A stretch of 61,200 bases of DNA, filler included, from Kipferlia bialata (lineage: Eukaryota): the NCBI GenBank assembly GCA_003568945.1. It is 4 parts of 4 records of this genome, joined end to end, with 100 filler letters (N's around TTAATTAATTAA, not from the genome) between each part and the next. Parts side by side here need not be neighbours in the genome. Positions count along the whole stretch, not along the records: positions 22,018 to 43,901 come from BDIP01000312.1; 3 more parts are not named here. One strand, written 5' to 3'. Both the position numbers and the translations under genes were made by a program. This document shows, piece after piece, positions 18-42,135 of this stretch; within the stretch, counting starts at the first letter, position 1, and the number at the start of each line of letters is the position of its first letter. The notes below the pieces were generated by a model. It searched no databases. It was not told the DNA's origin and saw only the letters and a program-made list of their open reading frames with translations.

Positions 18-262
18 TCAGGATGATACCAGACTCGGGGTCCTGGAGGGGTAAGGGTATATGTAGAGTATATGGAGAGGGGGGAGGGGGTAGATATTAA
101 TGGAATAATACCGGACACCGGGTAGAGATAGAGTGGGGTGGTATATACACACCTCAGTGTTCATGAGTGACACACTCATCTTGTCCCACACCCCAGCCAT
201 GTGGTACTCATCATGCAATGCACTGTACTGGCACATAGCGGCACCTGCGCACCTGGTGTAAG

Positions 263-306
<44 letters not shown>

Positions 307-1027
307 TATATCATGCAGGGCACTGTACTGGCACATGGCGGCACCGGCACACCTATAGAGTAAGATATATGAATATAGAGAGAGGTGGGGTATGCTATAC
401 AACGCAAAGGGGAGGTGGAAGGGGGGGGGGGGGTAGCAATACACTATGAAATGTACGTACTCCATGCGGGTGGGTGGCTTCTCTGTGGTTGGTACCCCAG
501 GGTGTCCCATCTCAGAGGTGGGCTGGCATAGGTTCCAGAAGTAGGTGACTGGGGGTAAGGGTAATAGAGAGACAGTGTATATACTTGGCGATGCAAAAGT
601 CCACAGAGTGAATAGTATGCATCAATACACACACACGTACACTCATCGTCGTCCAGCTCGTATGCCACATTGTCGGTGCCAGCAGTGGGGATCAGGGCAG
701 CGAAGTTGTACTGATAATAGGAGTACTGGGGTAAGACAGAAGGAGACTGGGGGAGACTTGAAGTGGCTGGTCCCAGGTCAAGGAACCAGCAATACAGCTA
801 TATCACTCATCACTACTCACTGTCTCCTACGCACTGTCTCGAGGCTAAGTGAAGGGTGAGGAACAACTGCTCCTTCCAGACAATAACACTCTTACATATA
901 CCAAGAGTATACATCAAATACACCTCCTCACCTGCACACTACATGTGTTGTAGTCAATGGACACATTCAGCTCTGCCAGGGCAAGGCCCAGCAGGGCCAC
1001 AAGACACGCACACAGGCCCACTCTCAT
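18..1027 (-). CDS. Secreted MRH-domain (mannose-6-phosphate receptor/ATG27-like) protein, multi-exon, 3' partial
   Basis: ATG at 1027 starts a signal peptide, MRVGLCACLVALLGLALA. Spliced exons give YNFAALIP..AYELDDD, TYFWNLCQPT, CAGAAMCQYSALHDEYHMAGVW (exon 153-252) and DPESGIIL. This follows the MRH order YDLSPL / YYFNIC / AVCQ..SLG / GVVLTY. Confidence 0.6.
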
Positions 1028-4100: not shown

Positions 4101-7100
4101 TGTAAAGCCATTATTGGTGTATAGTGTGTAGTGACATATTCAGATATAGTGAATTATGTGTACCTCATAGAACACTGGGTCATTGACCGACAGGTGCGTG
4201 ATTTGGTCGAACTGCACCACTCTGATCCTATGTCCTGAGGCACCGTCTAGGCCATAGATGGGTACCTGCATCAGAAACAGTACCATAGTACCAGCAGTAT
4301 CTATATAATATATATGCATATTGTTAGTACTTACCTGCCCCACCCCCCAGAGGGCACCTGCTATGTCAGGCAGCAGCCACAGACAGTCGGCATGCACTAT
4401 CACATGCAGAGCACGTGGGTTGCTAGAGTGGGCCAGGGTGTGCACACTCTGCTCCACCCTGTCCCAGTGCCTAGAGAGACTGGCCCTGTCCTTGGCTAGC
4501 ACACTCTCTCTCTCCTGCATCCCCTTCACACTGTGGGTACTGAGTGATGTGGCGCGTAGGTAGGCAGAGAGGGCTGCTAGACCAGATGTGGGGTTGAGGC
4601 ACAGGCACACGCACAGGTGCTTGAAGAGTACGATGTCAGCATCCGCTGTCGAGTATTTACCCAATACAGCACTGGGTAGCCATATGGGTGTGACCTTGGC
4701 CCCCTGTAGCACCCTATCTGTGCATGATGCCCCATTGAGTAGACCCACTAGACATCTAAGGGCACCCTCGGAATCACGGCACACCTCTACTAGACCTGAC
4801 CGTAGCTGTCTGTAGGTGGATACCTCAGCACAGAGACCGTTGAAGAGAGAGTGACAGGAGGCCTCGAGATGGACAAGGCGACCCAAGGCACTGGTGGTAA
4901 GAGTATCACTCAGACATAACTACATCGGAACATGGTAGTGTAAATAGAAGAATAAATGTACGTACTCCCTGAGCCCCTTCCCCGCATGTCCGTTGGTCAC
5001 TGATCTAATCACTGGGTCTAGCACTCTGGCCAGGCCTATTGCACGGGGCTTCTCAGCCAACTCTCTCAGGGTCTAGTGGTAGAGGGGAACAGACAAAGAG
5101 AGAGTAACATGTCAACAACTGAGTTATCACCGACAGCATACCTCCCAGTCGGCGCCATAGAGTGCCTTCAGCACTGGCAGTACTGACCCAGAGATGTGAC
5201 CACGTAGCCTTAGTCCAGTCAAGAGAGTGGATGTGAGGATGGAGGGTACGTGTGAGGGCTGCGTGGCTATGGTGTGCATCTTCTCACAGATCTTTCCCTG
5301 GGCAGGTAAGTACTACTGCAGGATACATGTGAGATGGAGAAAACTGAGGAGTGATACAATAATACGCACCAAACCCCTTATCATACTAAGTATAGCTAGG
5401 GACCAGAAGACACCTATCACAACTACATATATATATATACATATCACGTACCAGTCACCCCATGAATGTATCCCCGCTAGGAACTCTGTCGTCACCTCTT
5501 CCGTACAATGCCTATACATGTATGTATATATATATATATATGTGTGTAGTTAATCACGTACCAGCCCCCCCATGAATGCCTGTCCCACAACATGTGACAG
5601 CCTAGGGGTGTCAGGTGGAGAGGTGCCGGTAGACACCCTCCCCCCCTGCATCACACCCACCAGTCCATGCCTCAGGTACTCTAGCTGGTGCTCCCACCTA
5701 CCCAGTGCACGTATCAGGGGGGAGGGGTATGTCTTCAGAGTGGAGGAGAGGTGCAGCCGCATCTCACGCCATTGCTGGGGGTGGGAACGGTCACAAATGA
5801 AATGTAGTATATACGTGACCCGTGTTAAATACATAATACACCTACCTGGAATGGAGTGGTCATGTCCCACACGCTGCACAGCTGGGGTTAAAGAGAGACA
5901 GAGTCATATGGGTATGGATACATTCTAGTCCAGAGTATGCACCCACCTCCTTGAACAGTTCCTCTGCTCTGTTATGATGGTCCGCCAGTGCGTCCAGCAC
6001 TTGTACCACCTTGTCCTCTTCTTCTCTAGGCTTGAGGTGCATGGCGACTGTACCTATGCCACCCTTGAGACTGTGCATGTGGGAGTGCATACCATGCTCT
6101 AACAGAACAACTTGGGATAAGGGAGATGCACACTAGATAAGGGAATATATAATGTACTAGGAGTATATATACATATTGTATGTATGGATGTGGGAGTGCA
6201 TGCCGTGCTCCAGCAGCACAACTTGGGATAAGGGAGATGCACACTAGATACGGGAATATATATTGTACTAGGAGTATATACACATATTGAATGTATGGAT
6301 GTGGGAGTGCATGCCGTGCTCTAGCAGAACAACTGGAGTTAAGGTGGTACATACACACTTGCAAGGGTAGATATGTTACACACAGTATCTCAATTCAAAC
6401 TGTATAGATATATACAATAAGCAGTGATACCTCTTCTAATGGGTCCATTCCCACTGGCACGCCCTGTCTTCTCAACGGCAGTCAGGACAGACAGGAGGTT
6501 GAAGGCAGGCTGGGGTTAGGACTGACACAGACACTATAGCGTTTGTATTTGGATATATATAGGGAAGTGAGAGCTGAGTACCTCTGGTGAACAGCAAATC
6601 AATGTCCTGAAGTGTGGGGCGGAAAGACACTCTTGGGGCACACACACGAATATGCGGCGGGAGTGGATTGGGGTCTGTGGTGAGAAACTGGACAATTTGT
6701 GTATCTATGAGTGAGCATGAATGATTGTTATGTGTCAAAGTTGATCCGTACCTTCAGTAGTACTTGGTGGGTCCCAATCAGAAACTCCTGACCGGGCTTG
6801 GTAGACTGGGGTGAGACAGAGATTGATGATCAGCAATGACACCATATATGGAGTTAGTTTCAATGACCTCCCAGCGGGAGTCCCACATGCATACCTGGCT
6901 AATGTAGGCCCTCATGATCTGGAGCAACAGCTGAACGGCCTACAAGTGAGAACAAATATACGTGTTAGAATAGGCTGAACTAGTGTGGCATATTGCATAC
7001 TCTCTCTGAGCGGACTACAGATATAGATTACCAATACCTGAGAGCTGGCCGGTTGTCTTCGCTTGGACACCAGGATCAGGTCTCTCTTGTTCTGCAAGGC

Positions 7101-22179: not shown

Positions 22180-22338
22180 CGTCTCACCCCAGTTCCCAGG
22201 AGTGGATTCTACCCTCTTTCCATGTCTCTCTCTCCCTCTCTCTCTCCCTCTCTCTCCCCTCACTCCAGTTCTCAGGTGTCGATGCTACCCTCTCTCTCTC
22301 TTTCTCTCTCCCCACTTCTTACTAGCCTCTCACTCCAG

Positions 22339-22498
22339 TTCTCAGGTGTCGGTGCCACTCTTGAGGAACAGCCCGACCTGCTACTTGTGTCCAGGTAGAT
22401 GATATGTTTATATATAGTAGTGAATAGTGGCGTGTATAGTACTCTTATAGTCTCCACCCTCGAGGTACAGACCTGCTACTAGTGTCAAGGTAGATGAG

Positions 22499-22531
<33 letters not shown>

Positions 22532-23147
22532 ACAGTATGTGGTACTCTAGAGTAGTGTGAGGAACAACTTGACCTGCTACTGGTGTCCAGGTACATATTG
22601 TTCTACCTCATATCCTTACTCTATCTATTGTCTCTCTCTCTCTCTACATATACACTCTCACCCCAGGGATGACGGGCCACAGACTGCCCCACAGCCCATG
22701 CCCATGGTATGTTCTCTCTCTCTCTCTCTCTCTCTCTATGCATAGTGTATTAATGTATAGTATATGTATACGTGTATTTAGTATATATATCTTGGATATG
22801 GACTGCCTCACTGCCCATGCCCATGGTAGATTGTCTCTCTCTCTGTATCTTTCTCGTTGTTCTTATGTAGAGTCACGACCCAGATTGCTGAATGAGGTAG
22901 CTGCTCTCTCTCTGTGTGTGTGTATATGTCTCTGCCTGACTCTAGGAAAAGAGGATGTATCTATTTTTCTCTATCTACATATTTTCCTATGCCTAATATA
23001 CCGACGCCTCTGTTTATCACCCTAGGTTGAGAGGCTGATGTCCCTCACTGCTGACTGGAGAGAGTACTACGAACTAGGAGGCACAAGAGAGGACATGGAT
23101 GGAAGGTATATACATGCATATATATGTATATATATAGAGAGAGAGAG

Positions 23148-23190
<43 letters not shown>

Positions 23191-23306
23191 TTATAGAGTT
23201 ATACTACGAACTGGGAGGCACCAGAGAGGACATGGATGGAAGGTATGTATATATATATATATCTATGTATATATATACATATATATATTGGGGAGAGAGA
23301 GACAGG

Positions 23307-23337
<31 letters not shown>

Positions 23338-23866
23338 GGAGAGACTTAGAGTACTATGAACTGGGAGGTACAAGAGAGGATATGGATAGAAGGTATATGC
23401 AGAGATGGATATATACTAGTTCATGTATACAGCTATACAATCAATCAAATTGACACTCACTCTGTAGATACACTAAGACCCTTGCCAGTGTGTTCCCTGT
23501 CCCTGTATGTATACATATATATATATCCCTCTCTCTCTCTCTCCCTCTTACTCACTCTTACTCTCTCTCTCTCCCTCTTACCATAGATATACCAAGACCC
23601 TTGCCAGTGTCTTCCCTGTCCCTGAGCACAGTGGGGTCAAGAGGAGACTACTGCTAGACGAGAAGAGGTATGTATACATTTACATAGATATATATGTATA
23701 TATATGCCCTTAGTATATATGTATAATATATGTGTTCCCTGTCCCTGAGCACAGTGGGGTCAAGAGGAGACTGCTACTAGACGAAAAGAGGTATGGATAC
23801 ATATATATATTATTATTATATATATACCCCTAGTATGTATATAGTATATGTGTAAGGGGCAGTCGG

Positions 23867-23907
<41 letters not shown>

Positions 23908-24097
23908 ACACCCTTATTGCAGGACTGCCAGACTGCGTCAGTCCCATCCCTCTATGGCCAAGAAGTCTCTCTCTCTCTCTCTCTCTCTACACCCATATCA
24001 CAGGACTGCTAGACTGCGTCAGTCCCATCCCTCCAATGCCAAGAAGTCTGTGTACAGGGGACTGGCTCTGCAGCCAGAGATTGTAAGCCAGGTATAT

Positions 24098-24130
<33 letters not shown>

Positions 24131-24627
24131 GTCTTATATATGTATAGTCTTATATAGTCTTATATATGTATAGTCAGAGAGAGACTGTGTATAGGGGACT
24201 GGCCCTACAGCCAGAGATTGTCAGTCAGGTATACACACACACACACATATATATATATATACAGTGTATACATATACACACTGCCAAGAAGTTTGTCTTT
24301 AGAGGACTGGCATTGCAGCCTGTGAGGTATATACAAATATATAGAGAGAGGGGCTGTGTATGAATGTATAGAGAGGCCGATGAATCCCGCACCACCCTCT
24401 CTCTCTGTGTGTACATAAATGTTCATGTGTTCGTATATGTATGTATGTATATGTACATTTATCTCTCTCTCTATATATATATATCTATATATACCTGACC
24501 CTTCAGTTCAAGGCCGATACCTCCCTCCCCACCCTCTCTCTCTCTCTCTCTCTCTATCTATGTATCTTCCGCTCTATATATACATCTATACCTAACCCCA
24601 TAGGTCATGGCCGACATCTCCCGCCCA

Positions 24628-24667
<40 letters not shown>

Positions 24668-25218
24668 CATGTATATCTAACTCCTCTAGGTGATGGCCGA
24701 TACCTCCCGCCCCACCCTGGCCGCAGCAGTCAAGGCGCAGGAGAACCAGGGTCTGCTAGAGGCACCACCGTACGTAGAACGTTAATTGATTCATTGATTG
24801 TTTATGATTGATTATAAAGATGTATATAGTTTGTCAAGGCACAGGAGAACCAGGGTCTGCTTGAGGCACCACCGTACGTACATATATACTTTCTCATATA
24901 TATATACTATTTATACTATATTACTCTCTCCATTGGGTTATCCATGTTGTGCACTCATTTCTAAATGTCCTCTCACCCCTAGACAGATTGACAACAATCT
25001 GCTCAAGACCACATTACTAACTGCTAACCTATATATAANNNNTTGACAACAATCTGCTCAAGACCACATTACTAACTGCTAACCTATATATAATAGGTCT
25101 CTCTCTCTATTGTGTATGGTATTGTGTATACTGGTTTCTATATGCTCCCTAACCCCCTAGGCAGATTGACAACAATCTGCTCAAGACCATTGCACAGGGA
25201 TTGACCAAGAAGCAGTGA
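22339..25218 (+). CDS. Hypothetical protein, C-terminal exons (5' partial)
   Basis: Exons at 22339-22394, 22667-22706, 23026-23105, 23587-23667, 24004-24091, 24690-24769 and 25161-25218 are phase-compatible: FSGVGATLEEQPDLLLVSR..VERLMSLTADWREYYELGG..YRGLALQPEIVSQ..QIDNNLLKTIAQGLTKKQ*. A micro-exon near 22870-22960 is possible. No family recognised. Confidence 0.65.
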
Positions 25219-25224
25219 GGGGGT

Positions 25225-25255
<31 letters not shown>

Positions 25256-25811
25256 GGACTGACCAAGAAGAGACACTAGAGGTAGATGGTGGAGAGAGAG
25301 AGAGCGGAGACGGCCCCAACCCATCTTGCAGTAGTCATGAGTTGAGGGTAGACGGTGTCTCGAGGAGAGATGGACGTGCATGTGTCCTGTGACCATCTTG
25401 CTTCCGTGTACATTGGCACTTCTATGAAGGAGACCAGGCTTGGTACCCCTGTTGGTACCCCTGTTGTTGGCTCTTATGTGTCTCCTGACCTCTGCCGGTC
25501 CCTAACTGTTGTAGATGGATCTACACCAGTCTAGATATCCTCTGCTATTCTCTCCACCCGTCCCCTTTCCTATTCATGTCTTGGTAGAGAGAGTGTGGGC
25601 AGCCTGGCTGATGGGGACAGTGTTTGTGTTGTCCATGGGAGAGACAGAACTGAGAGGAAGGGAGCACTCCGCTCAGGGTAGTTGGTGTAGTATTCATATT
25701 GGTGTGAATTGTGCTTATAAATGGATAGGATGCATGATGCAGTGTTACTGATATGGCGGTAGCTCTTAGCTTGAGTCTCTCTTTCTGATCTACGACTGAT
25801 GGAAGAGAGAG

Positions 25812-26701: not shown

Positions 26702-27387
26702 ATGGGTAGGGGTAGGCCCAAGAATGGGCCGGGGGGGTTAGAGAGAGAGAGAGAGAGAAGGAAGCCGTCCTCAGCTGATGTGCTGCACAAGAACCTGATA
26801 CTTTACAACAATGGTGCACCAGCTACTGATGAGGTACCTCCCAGTGTATAAATGTATATATATATTTAACCATATATACTTACGTGTGTATGTGTCTATA
26901 TATGTATCATATGATACCTATATTGTGAGTATCGTGAGTATAGTGGACCATACAATACACGTATCATGTACTCAATATATATGTATATAATACACATACA
27001 TATATGTGGGGGGCGGTTCTGAATGTCCTCGCCCCTCTACATATTTGTATCTTAGTGTCCAAACGTGTGTGTTTCTTTACTCTATACTGGAATCAACCCG
27101 CCCATCCCAGCTGCATAAGATATGCCTATTTGGCTGTGTTGTATGTTCCTCTTAGTGGATGTGTCGTATCGTATCGCATCGTATCGTAACTTGTCGTATA
27201 TGTCCACTCATCCAAGGCAGAGCTGGCACGTAAGGTGAACATCGCAAGTCGTGAGTGGGGTAAGACCTGGGCTCAAGACACGAATGAGGTATGTATACTA
27301 ACCTGAGTGTATTGGTATATATATATACATATACATGTTTTTGTATTGAGCTGGATGACCCAGAGAGTGGAGGTACAGTGGTATTGA

Positions 27388-27420
<33 letters not shown>

Positions 27421-30400
27421 ACTCCTATCGTCTGTACAGAAGGGTAAACGTGGCACAATTATATATTAGACATACATATATATACGTAAATGTGTATTAT
27501 ATTTCATGTATCATACATAGTGTACATACATAGTAGTCATGGGAGGGAGCACAAGTTCCAGAGAGGCAGCGTATCCTGAATATCATGTATGACTAAGTAT
27601 ACTATTGTTGATTCATGGTATAATACTGAATATGCTGTTGCAGATACATTATGTTTAACTATCAGGAGAGGAAGAGCAAGTTCCAGCCTGGGACGGTCAC
27701 TCCCAAGGACTTTGAGAAGCTGTCCACCATCAAGAGCCTCAGTTTCATGCTCAAGTGGCTCAAGAAAGGAGGTGAGAGTCGTATATATATGTGTGTGAGT
27801 GTATCTATGTATATGTCAGAGTACCACTGAGGGAGGTCTAGTATATATATATATATTTGCATTCTATTGTTCCTTACCATAGATGGCAAGAAGACTGTGG
27901 ATGGCACCAAGGGGTGGATCCACTACATCGACATGTTCTTCGTGCCCCGGAGAGGGCAAATGGGTTGCATGCCTGTATTGACGACCTTTGATGAGGCTTG
28001 CAGGCGTCGTGTGGAAGAGGTATGCACACATATTTACTCTGTTATACTTTGCTATATCTATTTAGGTATTGGTATATAATATTAACAAAGGCTGAATACT
28101 GTTAAAGTGCAAAGAATCTGAGATAGAGCTCTAATGCACAGATAGTTCATAATTCATATATATAGATAGTGCAGCATACTAGTGACAGATCTACCGCATC
28201 ATGGTGTAATCCTTCTGCATCTTTGTATATGAGTATATATATGTGTGTATATACACTGCAGATGCTCTGCACCATGGAGTGGATGTTATATAGATGTGTA
28301 TATACTTAATTCATAACTCTATTGATCATGGTATATATATATGTTTAGTTTGAGTAGTGTTATACACTAATGACAGATCCGCCGCATCAGTGAGTATGTA
28401 TAGATATATATGTCGTATATACAATGTGTACATTGTATATACTGACAACAGATACTCCGTGTCAGGCAGTTGATCAGAGCTGTCAAGGATGACATACTAC
28501 AGGCTCAGCGTAACAAGGGCGAGAGGTCGAAGGGTACGGGAAGCACGTTTAGTATAAGTGTACAATACATTGAGTATATATAGTATATATGAGTGTAGCT
28601 GTCAAGGATGACAGACTGCAGGCCCAGACAAAGGGTACGTGAGTGTTATTATATGCGTATTTAATTATATTATACGATATTAATATAATAGAAGTATTGT
28701 ATATATATATGAAAATATATTTATGGGACATATGTATATATATACACTCTTGAGATTGATAAGGGAGTCCAGAGGGTACTTGAACGACATATAGTATATA
28801 TACACATGAATCTGTGCATATATTTTACATACATATCAGGGCAATGACCCCTAGGGGCAACTCAATGTATATTCATGTATTCTTTACAGTAATGTATACG
28901 TTTGTTTCTTGTGGTGCACTATATACATATCCGGGAGCACTGACCCATAGGAGCCACCCCAATCATCAGCAAGAGAGAGAGAGAGAGACAGACCACTGAG
29001 GGAGAGAGAGAGCGGCCAAGTGGGGCTGAAGGGGACAGAGAGCCCCCCATGGTATGCGACTGAGTATTATTGTTACAGTTACACATGTATCCAGGCTCTA
29101 TATGCATATGCATTATATACAATCAAGTTTGGTTGGGTGAGACCTATATAGTGTCGATTACATATCAGCTGTGCTACTGATTTCGTAGTTAGCATATCCA
29201 CCGTACAGTCTAGTATATGTGAGAATGACTGTAATTGGCATCTTCGCTATGAAGTGACTAGCATATCAATATATAGTACATACTGTATGCACGCTCACCT
29301 TATTCTCAATGTTTACCGCCGTCACTCTCCATCCATCTCTATGTATCTACGATGCTAACCGTCCAGGCGTCTACCCACCGAGTATATATATGCATGTATG
29401 TTAATACAGTACTACATACATACTATGATATAGTAGTACTGCATCATGCATTGACGATACTAACGCTCCAGCCATCCAGACGCCCAGACGCCAGTGTCCC
29501 AGAGAGGGACGGAGAGAGGGAGAGAGAGGGGGAGAGAGAGAGGGAGGGAGAGAGGGACCAGGGTCCAAGGGCTACTAGGAGAGAGGGTATGATATCTGTA
29601 TATAGGTGTCTACTATACTGAAGGATGGGAAGACCATACTTGTTGGTAATGTATATATTTGCTACATATATTCATATATGTCTACTATAATACTCACTCT
29701 CAGCTGTACCCAAGAAGAAGGGCAAGAAGAAGACTCACTATACTTTCACTATACCATATATCCACGATATATATGATCACCTCTCCCTGACTCCTCAGGG
29801 AAGAAGGGCAAGAAGAAGAAAGAGGAGGGGAAGCCACCCCACCCTCTCACCACACGTGGCCAGAAGCTCAGTCCCAGACCCCCCAAGGTATAGTCGTAAC
29901 TCTTTCTTTCCTAGATATACTTTAGTGTTTCTTGTTGTACCAACCAGAATTCAGAGTCTCTGATATGTCATATATCTATGTACCCCAGCGTGAACATGGT
30001 TGTATTCCTTTCATATACTCAATCGACTTTGTACACATCACTTGTCATCAAGGATTCTACTCTCATTTTCAGACTGGCACCGTAGCCGCTGAGTACACAG
30101 AGTTGGTGTCTCCTGCTAGTGAGCTACCCAAGGGCGCCATCAGCCACCACTCTCCCATACAGGTACCTGAGGTATATATGGGTGTATACTGGTTGTATAT
30201 ATATATATACCACTCTGAAGTACACTATTTCCACACCACATCTACCCATGGCCCCCATCAGCCACCACTCTCCCACACTGGCATGTATCTTCTATATACA
30301 TATATATATATACACATTACATAGTGCAACTGCACACACAGTATAGTGTACAGTATACCACAATATCGTATACGTATGTATATGCTTGCACCTTACTCTG

Positions 30401-33400
30401 AGGCCAAGGACAGTGATGTTACTGACTCAGCGTAGTACCATTTATACCTTGTATGTGAGTATATACATTAATATGAGTATACACGTCACCCTCAGGTCAA
30501 GGAGGGTCACGTGGCCGACACGATCCTCCAGGCCACCTCCCATGCTCACCCCGCTGTCTCTGGTCTAGGCACCCAACCCGAGCCTGCTCCCTCTGCTCAG
30601 AGAGACTCCCCTCCTACACCATCTCATGATGCAGTAGAAGAGGCAGAGACCATCCCTGCTGTGTCTCTAGAGACCCTTGCTAAGACAGGCTATCGGCGTC
30701 CCATGGTGTTTCCAGAGGGGCTAGTAACAGGAGCACAGACCACCACCCACACTGAGGCTCCCCCTCTCCCACTCTCTGCACCTGCTGAGAGTGCATTGGG
30801 AATCCCTGCCAGCGCCCCAATCCCATCTCCCCCAGTGCATACTGCACGTCCTAGTGCTCAGGTCAGTTGTTCTATGTACTCCTATATAGACACTATGAAC
30901 ACGTATACTGCCAGTATGTGATATACGAGACCACGACTGGGTCACCATATATCCTCTTTACAATGTATATGTAATAGTTCATAGGTACAATGGTATGTAT
31001 TGTATATCGTGCATGTATCATTAGATGTTCCCTGTTGTCTCTACAGTGTGGTAGAGTATATATACTATTCACTGCACTGTACTCAGAGCTCATCTATTTT
31101 ATCCCTCACACCCAGACACAGCAGCCTCATTAAACCTCCGGTTGCATATAACATATACACTGTACTATTATCCATACATCGTCTTTGGCACTCACCCCCA
31201 GGCACAGCTGCCTCTATACTTAGCATATATGGTGTATATTTGTGATTGTGATAACTCAGTAGACTCTACAGCTACACACGTCTTCACCAGTACTCACCCC
31301 AGGCACAGCTGCCTACCCCCTCCCCAGTCCAGGATGTACTGTCAGTGCCCTCAGAGAGGGAGAGAGGGGGGGAGAGTGTCGCAGCGTCAGTCCCCGCAAG
31401 TGACAAGGAGAGAGAGAGGGAGAGAGAGAGGGAGCCTCAGGTGTCAGAGAGTGAGTATGAGGTAGAGGTTCAGACAGGGTCAGTGGAGGTAGAGAGAGCA
31501 GCAGAGAGAGAGTGCGAGACTGGTGATAGCAACAACAGATCCCTTGAGACGGGGAGGGAGACAGAGGTAGAGAGCGTGAGTGAGACTGATACCTACGGCC
31601 CTCCTCAGATGGAGATGGAGAGAGAGAGAGAGGTGGACAGAGAGAGAGAGGAGGAGGTGGAGACTGACACCACAGCACCAGTGGAAAGTATGTTAGAGCA
31701 TATAGTACTCACCCATTAGTATACTCCACTATTGCCACGACGACGTATGATGCATTGGTATACTACAGTACACGTCTACCTTCGTCTATTCATATATATT
31801 CACTCTCCCCTCCAGCTTCCCCATATTCTTTCTATACTCATTCATGTACTCCATTTCTCCATCTTCGATATTGCTCTTCACTCTAACCCCAGAGGTGTTC
31901 TACGACTTCAACTTCCTGGTGTATGGCGACCCAGTGGAGGGAATCGACGTGGATGGTCTCAATGTCGACAGGGAGGGAGAGAGGACTTCCATGTCTCCCC
32001 AGGTGCAGTTACCAGGTATGCACCTTTCCAGCCTAAATACGGGATAGTTTATACTATGTATACAATGATAGGTGTATTATATATATATATATCATACATG
32101 ATAGTATATGTATCAACGACAGTGACATATTGCATCATGCAATTTGCATGTACTCTCGCCATGTACCGTATCTACCCAACACCCTCCCCATCAGCACCCT
32201 CCATCAGTCCCATCCGTACACGGTACGGAGGTCACCGTACACCTTACGGTGGCCAGGGTACCCAGGCCCAGTGTACACCTGGTGCAGATGGGCCTCTCTC
32301 TGTTGTGAGGGGGAGAGAGAGACAGACACCACACCTTGGTTCTGCGGCTGTGACAGAGAGCGGGACCTACTCTGGTGCGTGTTACATGGTATTATTGTCA
32401 TATATATATATGTGCATTTACATATATACATGTATTTATACATAATTGTGTGTTGACAGAGGGCGGGAGCTACTCTGGTGCGTTTGTGACTCCATACTGC
32501 ATATATAGTGCTATACTTAGTTAGTATGTGATTATACTTATATGGAGGTGCAGGCGACATCCCATTCAGTGTGAGCAGGAACCTGGTGTATACTACACTC
32601 TATATACTACACATATACCTATTCTACTATACTAATTACTATAGAATGTACGTCGTCTTATCCTAACACTTAGGTGCAATGGACATTCCGTACAGTGTGA
32701 GCAGGAACCTGGTGGGTCGCAGTCCAGATGACCCTGTGGTGAGTGACCCAGTATACTGAAGATACAGTACTACTATAACACATATAGTGTATTATACTAT
32801 ATAGTATGCAGTCCAGGTGATCCTGTAGTGAGTGCTGCAGTATGTAGAAGTTACTGCTGCTATCTACCTCTATGCAATACTCTATATGAATGTATACAGT
32901 GTATAGTGTATATATACTATCACTGCTGACTCTCAGAGACTGATGGAGTCCCGCACCCTCAGACTGCCCCAGTATACAGTGTAGTATATACAGTGTAGTA
33001 TATGTATATAATTACAAATATATATATAATTACTGACTGTCAGAGACTGATGGAGTCCCGCACCCTCGCTGTTGTAGTGTATATACTATACTATATATAT
33101 ATATATACAATATAGTATATATATATATATACTATACACAGAGTTACATCTTACATGCAGAGACTGATGGAGTCCCGCACACTTAGGTTGCTCAAGACCC
33201 GTGCCAGTGTGTCCCATGCCATAGACAGCGGGAGGAGACAGGGGCATGGTACATTCAGGGTGAGTAATATATATAGCAGCATATATAGTAGGATATAGAC
33301 AGTGGTGTCCCATGCCATAGACAGCAGGAGGGGACATGGACAGGGCACATTCAGGGTGAGTATATATAGTGTTAAGTGTATATATATGTATTATAGTGAG

Positions 33401-36400
33401 TGCACATGCCATAGACAGCAGGAGGGGACAGGGGCATGGTACATTCAGGGTGAGTATATATATATAGCAATATATATAGTAGGATATAGACAGTGGTGTC
33501 CCATGCCATAGACAGCAGGAGGGGAGAGGGGCATGGTACATTCCGGGTGAGGATATTATATATATATAGATAGATAGATTTAGATGTTTGTATGTATTCT
33601 ATATATATGGTCCATGCCATAGACAGCAGGAGGGGACATGGACAGGGCACATTCAGGGTATGGTATCACATACATATGTAGTGTATATACTGGTGTCTTG
33701 CGTACATAGTATGTAATATACATCTATACTACCTACACTAGAGTAGGGCACAGGGACAGGGCACGGTATACTTATACATATGATATAATCTAGCGCTATT
33801 GCCTCGTGTCACACGAGTCGTGTGGGTACTTATGGACAGTGACTAGTTCATGCTTACAAGCAGTTAGACTCATATTTTACTCATAGAGTAAACTAGCACT
33901 TGCCCTTACCCTCAGCAGTTGGCCCCTGTCCCTGGTGCAGGCACCATGGGCCAGATGTACACTCCGGCACCAGGAGGTATGTTAGTATATATATAAAATC
34001 AATCAATGTATATATGAATATGTACTCATATATATATATATATAGGTGGCACCATGGGCCAGATGTACACACCGGCACCTGGAGGTATTGTCAAATACAT
34101 ATATACGCGTATATCTATATACGGGCATATAGTTATATTATTATATATTCACAGCATGGGGCATATGTACCCTACGGCACCAGGAGGTATAAATGTACAC
34201 ACTTCTATACATCTATATCTGTCAATATATATATGTGTATATACTCATTCATATCTGTGTTGAGATACTAATCGTAATCATATCGCCTATCCTACCAGCA
34301 CACAGTGCTTCCCTGTCTATACATATGTTCTCTATGTCTACACCACTGTCTGGTTATCTTCTAGTTATATTGTATATATAATGTCTCACAACTCAGCCTA
34401 TCCTGCTGGCCAAAGGTGGTCTCCTATTGCCACCCAGGGAGATGGAGGTACATACAGTACGCATAATGTATATGGAACATGTACTATTCATATATATTCA
34501 CTACATAATAGTATCTGGAGATATATAGTAGGTATACACAACTACGCTATTGTGATTCCCACCCAGGATGATGCAGGTATGTACATATATGGTCACTACA
34601 TTCATATAAATGAATTCATCAGTCGGTCTAACCATCACGTATATACGGAGATGAATGGCAGGGACATATATATATATACATTTGAGTATTCTCAAACATG
34701 TACATATTAGTGTGAATCTAACCAACAGGCCTAGCTGCAGAGTCAGATATATCTATATATATATGCATATTACTATATACATATGTGTGTATCTCACCAC
34801 CAGACCTAGCTGCAGAGTCAGAGACAGAGGAGAATGTCCGTTCTCCCATCCCCGAGTTCGGCACTGACCTACCCGCCAGTCCCTACATCCAGGCAGTAGG
34901 CTACACCCCTCGCCCTCCCACACCGGGCTTCCTGGCACTCTCGCCAGCTGTCTCTCTACCACCACCCCAAGAGACAGTCCAACCCCCACCTGCATCTCCA
35001 ACTCCTGAAGAGCCCTCCGAGCCACGCTCTCCGACTCTCTCTCCCCCTCCTATAGAGACCTTCCAGCCGCTGGAGAGCCTAGTGGCCGAGACACAGACAG
35101 AGAGAGAGGGAGAGATACAGGCAGAGACTGATGCAGAGGTGGAGACTGACAGAGAGATGGAGAGAGAGACAGAGGCGGTGGAGGCTGGAGGAGAGGGAGA
35201 GGGGGAGAGGCTCGGACACCTTGGTGCCCTAGATGGGACTCCGTTCAGCCAGCCTCTCAGTCAGCCCCTCAGTCAGCCTCTCATTGTGCCTCTCAGCGAG
35301 CCCCTCGGTGTGACTGGGGAGCCCGGCCCTTGTGAGTACACAGGCCAGGTACGAATGTATATCATTCTGTTTCAGTATGCACTAGGCTTCAATATTATAT
35401 ACACTAAGCTTATTATACACCACGTCTATATGTTGGATTCTCTATATATGTACTATTTGCCCCATGTGAGTACACAGGCCAGGTATTAATATATCATTCC
35501 CAGTTGTATACAATATATGTTGTATGACTAAATGCATATATGAATGCCAGACAGATTGAATATCGCACCCGTATATAGATACCAATATGATTTAGTGTAT
35601 ATACGATTGTAATCAGAGTAGTACCTGTTGACCCCACAGGGTGCAGAGCCCAGTGATGGAGACAGTGAGGGTGACACCCCATATATATATGCATATATTT
35701 CTATATACTAGTATGTATATGTATGTCTATATATACATACGTTATAGCTTTTGACTCCAGGGTGCAGAGCCCAGTGACAGCAGTGTAACACACTTGTACA
35801 TATATACACATAATAGTAAGTATATATATACCACCATTGTATCTATTGACCCCACAGGATGCAGAGCCCAGTGACAGTGAGGGTGACAGCAGTGAGTCCT
35901 CTGGCAGTGGGTGTTCATCCAGTGAGGTAATACATGGCCATATGTAGTATAGTATATAGTATGGTATTGTATACTCTTGTGCATCTGAAGCGTTATACTA
36001 ATATGTTACATATAAGTAATATGTATGGATTTGTATATACCGCTAACTCTGAGTCCTCTGGCAGTGGGTGTTCATCCAGTGAGGTATTGCAATTGTGTGC
36101 ACAGTACATATATACATGTGATTATATACAATCTGCAGTGTTGCATATGTATGGATGACTGTGAGTGTCTCTCTGGAAGTGGGCCGTACGTATATACAAT
36201 GTGGTATGCTCTCTGTCAGTAGACATGTGCAACATTCATCTGTGTTCTGCATTAGTAGGTTGTCTAACCCGAGAAGGATACACTGCTGTATTATACTCTT
36301 ACCTTAGTTTACTGCTTCTCCATGTACTGATATGCATAATCTCTTACCCCAGGATCCCCCAGTCTGTAGTTACTCTATCTCCATATATATCTTACCTCAG

Positions 36401-39400
36401 GAGCCCCTCGAGGACCAGGCAGTGACCTTGGTAGTCGTCCCTCTGGAGACTGGAGAGGAGACTGCTCAGGCGTCTCTGGCAGTAGGCGGGGGAGAGGAGA
36501 GAGAGGCCCTCGTGTTGGAGAGAGAGGGGGACCTCGCCACTGTGGATGAGGAGGAGGTGGATGCAGTAGGGAAGGGAGAGGAGGGAGAGGAGAGAGAGGA
36601 GAGAGAGACACCCATGGATGAGGTGGTTGTGGATGCAGAGGGAGAGACCCTCACTGCAGGTGCCCTTGCAGGGGGGGACCAGGCTGATACTGACACGGTG
36701 AGTGCAGCTGTGGTGCCTGAGTCTGTGGGAGAGGAGCCTGCCATACAGGTATGTATATAACACTCAGTATATACAGGTATATTTGTACTCACTTATCTGA
36801 TGACATGTGATTATATATCTAACCACCAGGATGGAGGAGAGACTCCCTTTGAGACCGGCGTTCTTGTAGAGGAGGTGGCTATCTCTGCAGGTGCACCCGT
36901 TGCAGAGGAGGACACCATGCACTCTGACACAGCAGACACTGTGAGTACAGTGGTGGTGCCTGAGTCTGAGGGAGAGGCGCCTGCCATACAGGTATGTAGT
37001 GTGCTATATGTGTATTTATATATATCATATGTCTCGTTATTATGTGTGTGTCCCCTGTATCTGACCATCAGGTGAGAGAGGAGCCTGACGTCGGCAGCGA
37101 CGCTCTCGCAGAGGGGGAGTCTATCCCTCTGGCCACACAGGAGGTATGTGTTGTACATAGGGTACCAGTATACGTATGCATATACATACATTGCAAGCAT
37201 CTAGTATGGTGTGTATCTGCATTATACCTAATTAGCAGGTTGCACAGGAGTCTGTCCTCGAGAGTGAGCCTCTTGTAGTGGAGGAGGCCACAGCAGAGGT
37301 AGTGGGACAGGCAGAGACAGACGTTGACGCCGCTGTGCCACAGGAGCAGGGGGTTGTACACACCGAGAGGGAGGGAGAGGGAGGTGTCGAGTACAGTGAG
37401 GACATGGAAGATGACGCTGAGGGTGTAGCCGTTGATGCTGATGCTGCTGTCGCTGTGGACGCTAGGGAGGAGGTTGTGGCTGAGACTGGTGGGGAGGCAG
37501 AGGCAGAGGTAGTGGTGGTTGAGGAGCCCCCCGTCCAGTCCCACATGGTGAAGGGAGAGGTACGGGTTGTGTATGTGATGTATATATTTGCACACGATCT
37601 TTGGGATGCCACCATGATACTACGACTCCTTGTCACTCTATTCGTTGTCTAGAGTCCCTGACCCCAGACTGCTACCCCAGCCAATATGTGACTCGATGAC
37701 CCTATTCATATTATATATATATATGTATATATACTATATATTGTCTCACCCAAGACTGCTGCTCCCCTGGCCGTGCATGTCCCAGAGTCAGTCTCCCAAG
37801 AAGCTGTGTCACTCAGCCACATGCCAGTTGTGAAGACTGAGGTATGAGCATGCATACTACTCCACGACATATCATATGTACACTGCAGTGCAACTACATA
37901 TCCTACATATCCTACATATCCTACATACCCCCATGTGGTCATCATACTAGGACTGATACTACCACTAGTCTTCCTCTGTACTGTAGACTGTAGACTGACC
38001 CCAATGACTAATAGCCCAGCCATACCACACATTAACTACTGTATAGTACATGCTGTATATACTGTGTCTACAGCTCTCTGACCCTCAGACTGCTCTAGCT
38101 GTCAATGAGAGAGCTGCAGAGGCACCTGTGAGTGTCACCCACACCGTACAGCAGGCAGACACTACTGCCCTGTCTACACTGGCTGATGCAGACACTGCTG
38201 ATATGGGCACTAGTGCAGAGTCTGTAGAGGCCATCCCTGAGATCAGCACCCAGGACACTCACATCACCCCCTCCCTCACCAAGTTCATAGAGGCTGTGGC
38301 CGCCCCTGTCGCCGTCGGACCTCTCCCTCTCCCCGGTCAGACTGACACTCTCTCCAGCCTCTCTGCAGTGTCTGCTGACACACTCACAGATGCTCTACAG
38401 AGATCTACGGAGACAGAGACAGAGCCTGCAGCAGTGCCAGAGAGTCAGGATGTGGCTCTTTCTCTTGAGGCTCTGGAGAGTGACCTTTACAGGCGTCTGG
38501 AAGGAGTGCTTGCCCCTGGCGATGTGGACAGGAGAGTGGCACACATCATGGTACTTGCCAGAGGGGACTGTATCGACACTGACAATCCCCTACCACCTCC
38601 ACCCCCTCTCTCTCCTCTCTCTCTCCCTCTCGACACTGACAATCCCCTTCCCCCTCCACCCCCTCTTGGTATCAGTCTCCAGCCAGTGTCCGACAGAGAT
38701 GGTGGTGAGTATGTAGAGGGAGATGGGGAGGAGGCCGAGGATGTAGAGGAGGGCGATGACGAGCCCTACAACTATTTCGGTACCGACGTCGACATCCACT
38801 GTTCAGACGATGCTGAGGTATCAGTGGGGGAGGGAGAGGGAGAGGGAGACAGAGAGGGAGAGGATGGCAACACTGTACCCATGCCCACCTTCGCCACCAC
38901 CATAGAGGAGATACACGCTGGGGAGGAGGATGCTGTACGTGACGCTAGAACTGGCGAGTACAGGGCTCAGATGGCACGCTGCCACTTCATTCTAGGTACC
39001 ACTGTGCTGATTGCTACTATTATTGGGGACACCACTGGATACATATGTCTACGCATGTATACTGGTGGATATGGATATGGGCAACTGCCTCTGCATCACA
39101 CTATATTTATAGGTGTATTTATGGGTGTGTATGTGTACATGTATATATATCTACCATGCCAGTGTCTGATGTCCTGGCCTGTGTGATATACATATGTATA
39201 TACGTCCTAGTATATATATATGTGTGTGTGTGTATATATACATATTTGTATACATGTATATCTATATATAGAGGAACTAACGAGTCAGCGCCTGATGTCC
39301 TGGCCTCTGGGCACACATAGATATGCAAATCCTAGTATACATACACACACACACACATATATATATACATATACATATACATATGTATGCACTTGACACT

Positions 39401-42135
39401 AACGAGTCAGTGCCTGATGTCCTGGCCTCTGGGGCCACACCCCCAATGGAGGGCAAGGAGTTCACCAAGGCAAGGCCTGACATACATATACATGGATATA
39501 TATATTTGTGTATGTGTACATGTATGTAAAATAATGACTAACCAGTCAGGCAGTGATGGACGCCAGGTGCGACGGTGCCAGTGGTGACCCTCTTCGCCTG
39601 GTTGAGCTGTCTGGAAATGTGTGCGAGTTCTGGGACCGGGCTGGAGCCAAGTGAGTGACATTTAGATTCCTGTGTATACCATTGGTGCATATAGATTAGG
39701 ATTCGGTTGTGAATCTGACCCCAGGTACCCACTGACCCTATGCGTCACATGCATCAACCCCAAACCAGGTAGTGCCATATGTACATGTTGTAATGCCTCC
39801 TCATATCACTTACTGTCCATCTCCCAGCATCCACTACCTGTGCAACTTGTCTATATGCCCTCTGATTCCCAGGCGATGCTCTGCGGCAGGCAGAGTTTGT
39901 CAACGTTGGCCTTGGCCTCGAGAACATCAAGAGAGAGTACCCCGAGGACCAAGGCTACAACCTGAAGTCACGTCACATCCTGGAGGTCTTTGACCGCCTC
40001 TTCATACCCATCAGCTCCAAGAAGTACACGAGTATGCGCTACGGTAGTGGACCGACTAAAATGGCCGTTGGTGAGGAGTACCGTAGGGCCACTTTCGATA
40101 AGCTCCGCAACAGGATGAGGGGGAAGGCCAGACAAGCCTTCCCACTTGTGAAGGTAAGTGATGTGTTGATGGGAGAGGAAGGGGGTTACGTTATGGACAT
40201 GTATACTCTTATACGATATAGTAATTGTCTATGAATTCAATGATCTATACACAGTATAAGTTTCGAGCATCCTGCCATTGTCGTACCCAATATTTGTAGC
40301 AGAGTTTGGTCACGCATTCACTTCAGGACAGGAAAGCTTGTACTGTCGAGTTCCTCAACCATCTCAACTATACTGTGGCCACAGCCGTAGAGGGGTACGT
40401 GCATACATCATACACTTTACGTACACACACACACGTATATATTGGTATATTTATGTATTGCCGTATACACCGACAAACACCGACGTAATTACAGCCTGTA
40501 ATTTACAGGATCCAAGCACACCATCAATGTTGTTGATATCAATATATATCAATGAGTAGCGTCACACTATTATGGTATTGGGCTGCTGAGTATATATCAT
40601 ATATACTATACAGCTGAGTAAATACAAATATACTGTAAATATGACTTTAGACTCTGCTTCACCTCAGTGTCCAACGAGGCCAAGGAGAGGGCCCTAGGCG
40701 CCAGTACCTGATCACGGCAGCGGTATGTATCACTTATGGGATATGTCTTCAATTCGTAATATCAATCGGGTAGCATTCGGGTTTCTCACTGCTAGCGCCT
40801 CGACTCCAAGTACGACGACCCTCACACACTCAGAGTGACTCTTCTTCCCAGCCAGGACGGCCACCCAGTCGTAGGTATGGATATACATTTTACATATATA
40901 TATATATACACTGCCGTATAGTAGGTATGGATATAAATGTAGATATATATAGATATAAATGTATATATATGAATACTACCCAGTAGGTCTGGCACACTCT
41001 ATAGTATATTAGTAGGTGTGGTACCATCAGTAGAAAGGTCGAGTTCTCAACTCTACTGTGTGTTTTGATGAAGTGTATACTCTTGTACGTCTGTGTAAAT
41101 ATCATGCATACTCCTCTCATAATGCTCACTCAGGCTTCTTTTCGGAGGACTACTGTGTCACACTCAGGCCACCAACAGGGTAAGGGACTCAGCACAGTCC
41201 TCCCTCAGATATACAGTTTCACATATCAGCTCACTTTCACACATATATTTATACAACAATTATCACATGTATATATATATATGTGTATATGTACATATAC
41301 ATATATCATGGAAGACTTGAGGCACTAACCCCCCGGCACCCAGGAGTCACAGCACCTGAGGGAGAGACACACGGAGAGACCTACCCAGACCTCCCAGCCG
41401 GCGCCGCATCCTACTGCGCACTCTCTCAACTCCTCGAGACTACCTCTTCTCGTAGTAGGACAATACTATACCAACTGTCCATGTATGCATGATTCCACAG
41501 ACAGCGTATATCCTTGCTACCAAACACATTCTTCTCTGATTCTTCTCTATGTTACAAGTTCCTCCCAGTGCGTCTCACTTTGTATCCCTACACGCTTCGT
41601 CTCACACTAGGGTACTAGAGCACTTGCAGCAGCCCCAGTACAGGGCCGCATACCCAGGTACTGTATTCATATATACTCAAAGATATGAATACAATAGTAT
41701 ACAATATACTACCGAATGGGTTATTGTGTGGCATTAGGTAGAGGAGTACAGTAGATATAGCGCCACTCTCTCTCTAACGCTAGGCCTATATGAGGCTCTC
41801 CGTGGCCTCTGCAGGGCACTTAGGGGGAGGTATGTACCAAGTCTGACATGTGCTATAGATTGTATACAGTATGTATATGGGAAGGACAGTGCATCACTGA
41901 CGTCAGGCTTCCTGCCAGCTTGGTCGTTGAGGGAGGCGCCAAGCTCATCTACGTCCTGCAGGTATGCCTTATACTAAGCTATGTATATGCTTTACATATA
42001 TTAGAGGAGCCTTCTCCACCAGATGTAGTTGATATGGTATGAATGAGACCAAGTATCACAGTGTTCTTAGTATGACTCACCACCAGTGTGCAGGACTCCC
42101 CCTGCAGGTCACTGAGACTAGTCCCTAAGGAGTAG
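26702..42135 (+). CDS. Large multi-exon hypothetical protein (possibly more than one gene) with globular ends and a long P/E/T/A-rich disordered middle
   Basis: N-terminal exons MGRGRPKNG..DVLHKNLILYNN, KDFEKLSTIKSLSFMLKWLKK and GWIHYIDMFFVPRRG. Low-complexity exons span 29470-38995. C-terminal exons LVELSGNVCEFWDR, RHILEVFDRLFIPISSKKY and EGGAKLIYVLQ..LVPKE* (TAG 42133-42135). No family recognised. Confidence 0.55.

Follow-up and report, generated by a model that had tools for sequence, protein, structure and literature searches.

Exons of the metamonad Kipferlia bialata can be accompanied by partial copies of themselves in the flanking intron, here called echoes. In four genes (A, E, F and H, a grouping made after the results were known) the separation of echo and exon passed through a coding constraint that is impossible for a copy dead from birth. 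The excess of silent differences is likely to come from recombination with divergent alleles and not from present use of the echoes. All echo counts are from one window only, that is, the whole 61,200-nt stretch analysed, which draws on four contigs.

Structure of the echoes and of the genes that carry them

We scanned 157 exons against their flanking introns. The score cut of at least 30, which is the 99.9th percentile of 7274 alignments of exons with non-adjacent introns, was used for the echo inventory, the counts of synonymous (S) and nonsynonymous (N) differences per echo, the pN/pS tests per gene, polarity and the substitution spectrum. A cut of at least 26 was used for flank identity, branch motif, simulation, junctions, private changes and splice dinucleotides. 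The echo at 25043-25066, an exact duplicate at an assembly gap, was dropped after the inventory, and match 45957, the same echo as 45956, was dropped from the sets at the lower cut.

At the higher cut there were 73 echoes at 38 of the 157 exons, on all four contigs. Upstream echoes consist of the acceptor and exon start, and downstream echoes of the exon end and donor: the starts of echo and exon coincide to within 5 nt in 37 of the 38 upstream cases, and their ends to within 6 nt in 32 of the 35 downstream ones. None of the 73 is a whole exon or reaches both exon ends, the largest exon share being 0.74. Eroded mutually exclusive exons were rejected on the strength of this strict polarity, and junction analysis led to rejection of the idea that each spacer is an entire intron with splice sites at its borders. 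The echo unit is about 105 nt, and no spacer among 67 is shorter than 33 nt. The splice dinucleotide (AG or GT) is retained in 64 of the 72 echoes that reach the site.

In 45 of 72 cases the identity of the intron flanks did not exceed the 95th percentile for random pairs, and in eight it was at least 0.83; unrelated flanks made up 37/51 in genes B, C and D versus 8/21 in A, E, F and H. Among echo acceptors with unrelated flanks 14 of 27 retain the branch motif, compared with 57/90 real acceptors and 28/459 random intronic YAG sites. The 12 nt before the AG differ from those of the echo's own exon at 37% of sites, and nonsynonymous sites at about 6%. The echoes have 9 indels and one stop in 2380 nt, and several are frameshifted.

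Genes C and D match public K. bialata proteins exactly (KIPB_002352 and KIPB_002353), and the public model of gene C reads the echo at 50564-50611 as an in-frame 16-aa exon. Of 24 sequencing runs searched, one contained at least half of the query words. Contigs whose pieces join at GT..AG introns are called RNA-type here; their run is only guessed to be RNA, no holder being recorded as such. The models of genes E, F and H are predictions from sequence. Gene A gave no Pfam family for the four exons queried and no protein match; a search with a gene B exon gave no match (weak evidence), and nine pieces of a long gene on contig 1 gave no Pfam match. Each of the seven gene A exons is partly copied at least once in an intron beside it (18 matches at the higher cut, among them the dropped 25043-25066), as the earlier claim for nearly every exon had anticipated. 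On its RNA-type contig 232 loose letters precede the exon 1 piece (22337-22390).

Table 1. Exons, echoes and genes in the window, with S/N differences from the parent exon; gene A spans 22339-25218 on the + strand
Feature	Position	Strand	Basis or remarks
Gene A exon 1 of 7	22339..22394	+	Open frame, AG/GT; RNA-type contig piece 22337-22390; 5' remainder off contig
Gene A exon 2	22667..22706	+	Open frame, splice sites, RNA-type contig
Gene A exon 3	23026..23105	+	Open frame, splice sites, RNA-type contig
Gene A exon 4	23587..23667	+	Open frame, splice sites, RNA-type contig
Gene A exon 5	24004..24091	+	Open frame, splice sites, RNA-type contig
Gene A exon 6	24690..24769	+	Open frame, splice sites, RNA-type contig
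Gene A exon 7, stop codon at end	25161..25218	+	Open frame, splice sites, RNA-type contig
Upstream echo of exon 1 start, older	22193..22217	+	Below score cut, by eye only
Upstream echo of exon 1	22269..22291	+	2 S/1 N
Downstream echo of exon 1	22454..22489	+	4 S/1 N, 4-nt deletion; one DNA contig bridges exon and echo
Second downstream echo of exon 1	22558..22590	+	3 S/1 N
Downstream echo of exon 2	22801..22825	+	0 S/2 N; absent from the sequence-only list
Downstream echo of exon 3	23202..23242	+	2 S/0 N
Second downstream echo of exon 3	23348..23392	+	4 S/1 N
Upstream echo of exon 4	23468..23505	+	3 S/0 N; donor-like GT next, yet not in RNA-type contig
Downstream echo of exon 4	23731..23790	+	4 S/0 N
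Upstream echo of exon 5	23923..23968	+	2 S/2 N
Downstream echo of exon 5	24182..24228	+	5 S and one N at the edge; identity of intron flank to that of the exon 0.97
Second downstream echo of exon 5	24279..24325	+	6 S/4 N; stops short of donor
Three upstream echoes of exon 6	24375-24398, 24512-24535, 24604-24626	+	Jointly 2.5 S/5.5 N
Downstream echo of exon 6	24833..24873	+	2 S/0 N; DNA contig, depth 463, bridges exon and echo
Upstream echo of exon 7	24984..25011	+	0 differences in 28 nt
Echo of exon 7 end, beyond stop	25254..25270	+	1 S
Gene B	26702..40394	+	30 modelled exons, 10 of them with 21 echoes in all, 20 S/39 N, no S excess; three junctions on RNA-type contigs
Gene C (KIPB_002352)	44368..55411	+	36 exons, 24 echoes at 13 exons, 24 S/37 N, no excess beyond floor
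Gene D (KIPB_002353), inverted paralog of C	55851..59188	-	1 echo at score of at least 30
Gene E fragment	59886..60804	+	4 exons, 5 echoes, 14 S/7 N; predicted from open frame and splice sites only
Gene F exon 6110-5947 and two upstream echoes	5947..6332	-	Predicted; nearest echo 6221-6185: 5 S/1 N, adjoining intron flank 0.97 identical
Gene H exon 252-153 and upstream echo 352-303	153..352	-	Predicted; 5 S, one stop, one indel

Could the echoes be the two alleles of a heterozygous strain, assembled in tandem? The published draft for the species is described as short-read only (PMC5874029), one exact duplicate lies beside an N gap (24988-25093), and the DNA run may be the window's own source data and so not independent. 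However, single DNA contigs bridge exon and echo with no other letters, at depths of 315, 463, 481 and 464 against 468 and 473 for echo-free pieces, and one exon side can carry as many as four different echoes. In the eight DNA pieces listed, of many, other letters occur at only three places in 9941 nt, and the DNA run showed no further copy of the gene A exons (at least 85%) in the form of other letters. Such mis-assembly, which the sequence-only reading had itself named as fatal to its case, is highly improbable: depth is mostly that of a single copy, with no sign of half depth.

Excess of silent differences

The counts given earlier for six echoes of gene A were reproduced (S/N 2/0, 4/1, 3/0, 4/0, 5/0 with one edge mismatch, and 2/0; total 20 S/2 N). 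The claim that echoes differ almost only at synonymous sites holds for these six but is overstated, for they are the best cases of the gene: its other 11 echoes have 21 S/16 N (pN/pS 0.30, p=0.077 against the dead-copy floor), and the one at 22801-22825 has nonsynonymous differences only. Gene A as a whole has 41 S/18 N, with a pN/pS of 0.16 (p=3e-5), and genes E, F and H, pooled post hoc, have 30 S/15 N (0.17). For a copy dead on arrival dN/dS should be at least 0.5; the ratios in A, E, F and H are 0.06-0.19, each below the floor at p<0.05, whereas B and C, at pN/pS 0.69 and 0.52, show no bias. The pattern had been said to recur on all four contigs. Echoes do, but the bias does not extend to contig 3, because genes B and C lack it.

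Heterogeneity across five gene groups was significant (p=1.5e-4). All genes other than A, pooled, have 75 S/92 N (p=0.16, or 0.027 with 5 nt trimmed at the junction side); with a single echo drawn at random for each exon, all genes together gave a median pN/pS of 0.30 and a median p of 0.005; and the non-redundant count for A, E, F and H was 64 S/32 N (p=9e-7). In simulations with the same detector, copies dead on arrival gave 0.49-0.67 for these four genes and copies born divergent (theta 0.15-0.5) gave 0.10-0.28. Since the observed ratio, about 0.17, lies below the first range, the earlier inference of a coding filter stands for A, E, F and H.

Changes private to the nearest echo comprised 7 S and 3 N, where neutrality predicts 26% S (p=0.005, from small numbers). 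In 17 pairs of nearest and next echoes, compared at shared sites, S was 25 and 25 and N rose from 15 to 24 (Fisher p=0.29, a trend only). CpG hypermutation and GC drift were rejected as causes: there was no GC/AT direction (28 vs 26) and only 11 of the 64 synonymous differences were of CpG type. Mutagenic copying followed by a selection filter was rejected by reasoning, because error rates near 30% per site would be needed.

Origin of the echoes

Unusual splicing was among the mechanisms proposed from sequence. Rare or conditional isoforms, kept by protein-level selection, would account for the retained splice dinucleotides, for the donor-like GT that follows 12 of 43 upstream echoes, and for the echo included in the public gene C model. 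Against this, the single RNA-type contig of gene A contains the seven real exons joined whole and no echo, although rare forms drop out of contigs; the gene B contig skips the echo at 30242-30278; the missing splice site occurs at echo junctions about as often as expected by chance (those 12/43 vs 11.4, and 2/36 vs 3.2); and there are the frameshifts. This explanation is improbable, and for gene A unusual splicing is not supported.

We give about an even chance to the alternative that duplication at exon borders was combined with recombination between strongly divergent alleles, that only exons offered a surface for pairing, and that the echoes then decayed neutrally. A break in an exon would be repaired by homologous recombination between alleles some 0.15-0.4 apart at neutral sites, which would pair only at exons. 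One end would copy the donor half-exon and intron end and then be rejoined by microhomology, so that the resident half-exon and splice site would be displaced into the intron as an echo divergent from birth. Because two very S-rich echoes have flanks 0.97 identical, a further step is proposed: once an ordinary sister-type duplication had occurred, clean, exon-limited conversion would also replace the sequence of the working exon. Tolerance would be confined to units with a single splice site, and the echoes would undergo neutral decay (fitted at about 0.04 per site). Polarity, single-copy depth, the match to born-divergent simulations, the S-rich changes private to the nearest echo and branch motif retention are consistent with this. 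Against it, B and C fit plain dead copies equally well, unrelated flanks are commoner in B, C and D, opposite to what birth from divergent alleles alone predicts, and random truncation does not predict the lack of spacers below 33 nt. Introns of the paralogs C and D are near random identity at a pS of 0.2-0.25, so that rapid evolution of introns may by itself account for what the flanks show. Archived versions of exons had been proposed earlier; allelic ones fit best, and cDNA fits poorly because the echoes carry intronic splice signals. The donor alleles are ones that we infer, since no second haplotype or strain was found in metagenome scans, a representative protein search or public proteins. 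The 316 pattern matches from a metagenome scan with query P0001 included no relative, a scan with the gene F exon gave five loci (40% identity over 41 aa, taken as unrelated), and the representative search with P0002 gave three proteins, all from K. bialata.

Alternatively, old tandem duplicates might go on trading sequence with the exon they came from, through short conversion or contraction of the array; selection would then act indirectly against amino acid changes in echoes, since these would pass into the working exon. In the five clearest of 30 pairs the echoes show no differences (0/22, 0/25, 0/40, 0/23, 0/46) and the spacers many (9/75, 17/75, 11/69, 16/69, 10/40), and constraint tracks the gene, being strong in A and weak in C (dN/dS between C and D 0.38). 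Exchange at a rate open to selection, however, should remove synonymous differences too except where diversity is very high, and that would lead back to divergent alleles; moreover, indels and a stop have accumulated and strong acceptors persist beside unrelated flanks. We consider exchange unlikely. Also rather unlikely is that the echoes are sister-chromatid tandem duplications dead from birth, the S excess being local or due to chance in a few genes and strengthened by how examples were chosen or by a mutation bias outside the model. This suits genes B and C, the eight flanks of at least 0.83 identity, the dinucleotide runs, which cross 6 of 79 junctions where 1.35 would be expected, and the marginal result for gene A minus the six named echoes. 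The simulated ratio, however, never fell below 0.49, four genes individually passed the floor, one echo per exon still gave significance, and 53 S/32 N persist when CpG-type sites are removed. Driven recoding or exon-specific hypermutation, finally, would make working exons evolve faster at silent sites than their copies. The exon alone deviates from agreeing echoes at seven synonymous sites in A, E, F and H, S-rich echoes adjoin near-identical flanks, and coding sequence is poor in CpG (o/e 0.28-0.38). Yet echo-private changes are S-rich too (17 S/12 N overall, and more so in the nearest echo), the spectrum lacks direction, and introns diverge at least as much as silent sites between the paralogs. 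Recoding of exons alone, another of the earlier proposals, is therefore a poor fit and quite improbable.

Relation to known systems and significance

Our literature search found the pattern in no title or abstract opening, with subscription papers thinly covered. Silent donor archives serve antigenic variation in Trypanosoma (VSG), Borrelia (vls) and Neisseria (pilS). Like echoes, these are partial, unexpressed gene copies with coding-like divergence, but they are dedicated donors for one surface protein, whereas echoes occur in unrelated genes, differ mostly silently and are decaying. One-sided invasion, in which one-ended homologous repair is completed by microhomology, is a known process, and intron gain by tandem genomic duplication was reportedly described by Gao and Lynch in 2009. 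In such intron gain short intragenic duplications are described as concealed by splicing (PMC3265369, PMC3443670); echoes, in contrast, only lengthen an existing intron, and gene A has no new intron position. Tandem or mutually exclusive exons likewise have exon homologues in the adjacent intron, but these can be whole and expressed (PMC9013439), unlike echoes with their fixed polarity. MMBIR or template switching, as outlined in PMC4888836, would duplicate a stretch in tandem, leaving one end templated and the other joined by microhomology; for echoes the divergent-allele donor and operation on such a scale in genes are only inferred.

The minisatellite (VNTR) in intron 7 of human F7 lies at an exon border and has silent 5' pseudo-sites; its donor copies after the real donor stay silent, and the most upstream site is used (PMC1557585). 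In both cases the unit crosses the exon-intron border, one splice site is repeated, and pseudo-sites are silent in the main mRNA (here from the single RNA-type contig of gene A and one gene B junction). F7 as described is one locus with identical pseudo-sites, whereas echoes occur at about a quarter of exons, on donor and acceptor sides, with codon-biased differences; the near-identity of whole units, intron part included, also fails for most echoes.

Ku70/80 and DNA-PKcs are reported to be absent from metamonads, and every member of the Fornicata examined to have lost Rad51A and kept two Dmc1 paralogs (PMC8516963); Dmc1 is reported to stabilise mismatched triplets (PMC6719624). It is possible, though we hold it only tentatively, that in a lineage with neither NHEJ nor Rad51, mismatch-tolerant Dmc1 recombination of hyperdivergent alleles, with pairing confined to exons, repeatedly displaces resident half-exons together with their splice site into the intron, so that introns would form a time-ordered, genome-wide archive of alleles, driving intron growth and turnover of intron ends.

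The species is reported to have 124,912 introns (PMC5874029), and with copies at about a quarter of the exons examined, echoes may shape intron structure species-wide. They may also mislead gene prediction, as the public gene C model suggests. Whatever their origin, the spliceosome bypasses acceptors and donors of full strength that lie some 100 nt away from those in use, which makes the echoes a natural test set for exon definition. If the allelic reading is true, population and synonymous diversity, recombination history and evidence of outcrossing would be readable from one clonal genome of a free-living metamonad, and the unusual repair kit of fornicates would be tied to a visible genomic scar.

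Catalogue and anatomy of the echoes

Echoes (partial exon copies in flanking introns) were sought by codon-blind alignment of every exon to both flanking introns, with a score cut of 30 (99.9th percentile in a null set of 7274 alignments). The search gave 73 echoes at 38 of the 157 exons of the window genes. Upstream echoes (acceptor plus exon start) begin no more than 5 nt from where the exon starts in 37 of 38 cases, and downstream echoes (exon end plus donor) finish no more than 6 nt from where it ends in 32 of 35. Their median length is 31 nt, the largest share of an exon covered by any echo is 74%, and the nearest echo is offset from its exon by 59-178 nt (median about 105). AG or GT is retained in 64 of the 72 echoes that reach a splice site. 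No intron of genes A-E has an upstream-type echo ahead of a downstream-type one. Spacers in these genes run from a minimum of 33 to 149 nt and unit length stays tightly near 105 nt; candidate causes are a minimum set by splicing or the length of a repair tract.

The models of A-E were built manually and keep an open frame from end to end; those of F and H are approximate, from a purpose-written chaining script. RNA-type contigs come from a run only guessed to be RNA (pieces join at GT..AG introns). One of 747 nt (depth 83) covers exactly the seven exons of gene A with no other letters, and three junctions of gene B are present on others; of the models with a synonymous excess (A, E, F and H), the RNA check covers A. 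KIPB_002352 and KIPB_002353 of Kipferlia bialata, retrieved with one gene C exon as query, match the C and D models without mismatch, the public C having one additional 16-aa block. Gene C has an AMPK glycogen-binding domain; nine pieces of gene F gave no Pfam matches. Introns are short, with abundant TA, GA and CT runs and a branch motif near the acceptor. CpG is scarce in the coding sequence of A, B, C and E (observed/expected 0.28-0.38), which hints at CpG methylation.

Genes and other features, with echo-versus-exon differences (S, synonymous; N, nonsynonymous)
Feature	Position (strand)	Exons with echoes	S/N	Remarks
Gene A	22339-25218 (+)	7/7	41/18	
Gene B	26702-40394 (+)	10/30	20/39	
Gene C	44368-55411 (+)	13/36	24/37	
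Gene D	55851-59188 (-)	1/13	1/1	
Gene E (fragment)	59886-60804 (+)	4/4	14/7	
Gene F	21690-1345 (-)	2/64	11/7	Very long, about 64 exons; few microsatellites
Gene H	first contig (-)	1/3	5/1	
C/D paralogs	52553-55285 (+); 58079-55890 (-)			Inverted; intron positions in common
Echo array	33161-33660 (+)			One exon with four downstream echoes; two alternating types differing at four third positions; mosaic spacers; together a sign of unequal exchange
GC intron	39469-39550 (+)			Modelled intron after gene B exon 39411-39469; starts GC, not GT
In-frame coding repeats, gene B	36651-36998; 38573-38666 (+)			Between two adjacent exons; inside one exon
Exact 51-nt duplicate	24988-25093			Flanks a 4-nt N gap (25039-25042); most likely a scaffolding artefact
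Unspliced RNA-type contig	25264-25734			Depth 61; directly beyond gene A stop; may be its 3' UTR or a separate transcript
Upstream echo, gene C	50564-50611 (+)			Read by the public model as a 16-aa in-frame exon bounded by AG and GT; either prediction error or echo turned coding

Synonymous bias

The sequence-only reading held that echoes differ from their exons almost only at synonymous sites, in gene A and in unrelated genes on all four contigs. The six gene A echoes that it named do show 20 S and 2 N, and gene A as a whole has a pN/pS ratio of 0.16 (p=3e-5), but its remaining 11 echoes stand at 21 S/16 N, N exceeds S in B and C, and S/N is heterogeneous between genes (p=1.5e-4). The proper null model is a dead copy, functionless from its origin, next to a silently changing exon; a dN/dS of at least 0.5 is expected for it. 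Taken together, the 73 echoes have 115.5 S and 110.5 N differences, spread 59/45/122 over the three codon positions, and a dN/dS of 0.26-0.33; with a single echo per exon (1000 draws) the median ratio is 0.30 (median p=0.005). All non-A genes pooled give p=0.16, or 0.027 with junction ends trimmed.

Simulated dead copies of A/E/F/H exons, a grouping made post hoc with the counts already seen, gave ratios of 0.49-0.67 through the identical detector, and the bias is therefore not a product of detection. Simulated born-divergent copies gave 0.10-0.28, a pS of 0.29 being matched best by an allele divergence (theta) of 0.3-0.5. The ratio of 0.59 observed in B/C/D is compatible with dead copies or with a theta of about 0.15 and an omega of 0.38, the value from the C-D paralog comparison.

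Of the changes at sites under at least two echoes in A/E/F/H, 17 S and 12 N occur in one echo alone, and in 7 S and 1 N it is the exon that differs. The nearest echo has 7 S/3 N of its own in these genes, versus 26% S under neutrality (p=0.005), and 4 S/5 N in B/C/D (p=0.18). The differences do not lean towards GC or AT, and of the 64 synonymous ones 53 are of non-CpG type. Echoes therefore carry their own constrained history. Amino-acid changes appear to accumulate in them with distance, as a trend only (in 17 nearest/next pairs, at the sites that both cover: S 25 and 25, N 15 and 24; Fisher p=0.29).

Explanations weighed

That echoes are alleles mis-assembled in tandem is unlikely. Contigs of the DNA run X1 span exon plus echo with no other letters at 22318-22489 (depth 315), 24684-25006 (463), 27427-29500 (481) and 29561-32000 (464), although X1 is possibly the data underlying the window itself, and the agreement then not independent. 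X1 pieces without echoes have depths of 468 and 473; among the eight DNA pieces listed, with 23095-24683 outside them, 3 places in 9941 nt have other letters (85% cut). Passage into mRNA by unusual splicing, a mechanism proposed in the sequence-only reading, is opposed by the gene A RNA-type contig, which includes no echo (contigs drop rare forms); even 23468-23505, with a preceding AG and a following donor-like GT, is absent from it. The splice site that an echo lacks occurs at echo junctions no more often than by chance. Across 2380 nt of echo sequence there are 9 indels and 1 stop.

Echo flanks look like intron ends that diverged while still functional. In 45 of 72 cases the flank is no nearer the exon's own than random pairs are, and modelled substitution-only decay at 0.05 per lineage yields 0% unrelated flanks. 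Over the 12 nt preceding the AG, echoes share 63% identity with their own exons' acceptors (38% for random real acceptors). Acceptors with unrelated flanks score comparably to real ones (p=0.34), unlike random intronic AG (p=4e-10). This reading is weakened because unrelated flanks are commoner in B/C/D (37/51) than in A/E/F/H (8/21), because C/D introns are near-random, and because the S-rich echoes 6221 and 24182 (5 S each) have adjoining flanks 0.97 identical; these two echoes need exon-limited overwrite after ordinary duplication. Exon-limited conversion is also the likely cause of the closeness of C/D exons 54010-54727 (pS 0.20-0.25, pN 0-0.09), which are far closer than most other C/D exons, with introns at about random identity.

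Proposed origin

The sequence-only observation holds in part and its interpretation has partial support; among the proposed mechanisms, archived former or allelic exon versions are favoured. A constrained path between echo and exon, with no sign of a paralog in the DNA run and none of present use, points to other alleles as the source. Metagenome scans and a representative protein search found no divergent donor alleles. Intronic homologues of exons (PMC9013439) and, in human F7, exon-border repeats with silent splice sites (PMC1557585) are already known; a non-exhaustive literature search gave no description of such echo density or of sub-floor dN/dS, and searching the genome paper for repeats and duplication yielded no passage of this kind.

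Ku70/80 and DNA-PKcs are absent from metamonads, all examined Fornicata have lost Rad51A and kept two Dmc1 paralogs (PMC8516963), and Dmc1 stabilises mismatched base triplets (PMC6719624). Breaks in exons would be repaired from divergent alleles; one-ended repair closed by microhomology would displace a half-exon into the intron, and clean events would overwrite exon tracts. Arrays would grow through unequal exchange among units. A unit that carried both splice sites would be included in the mRNA and then purged by selection. Skipping of upstream acceptors would require exon definition; choice of the first donor is demonstrated in human F7 (PMC1557585). All steps proposed here for the echoes are inferred. 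It is conceivable, if somewhat doubtful, that the introns of this organism are an archive of former alleles.
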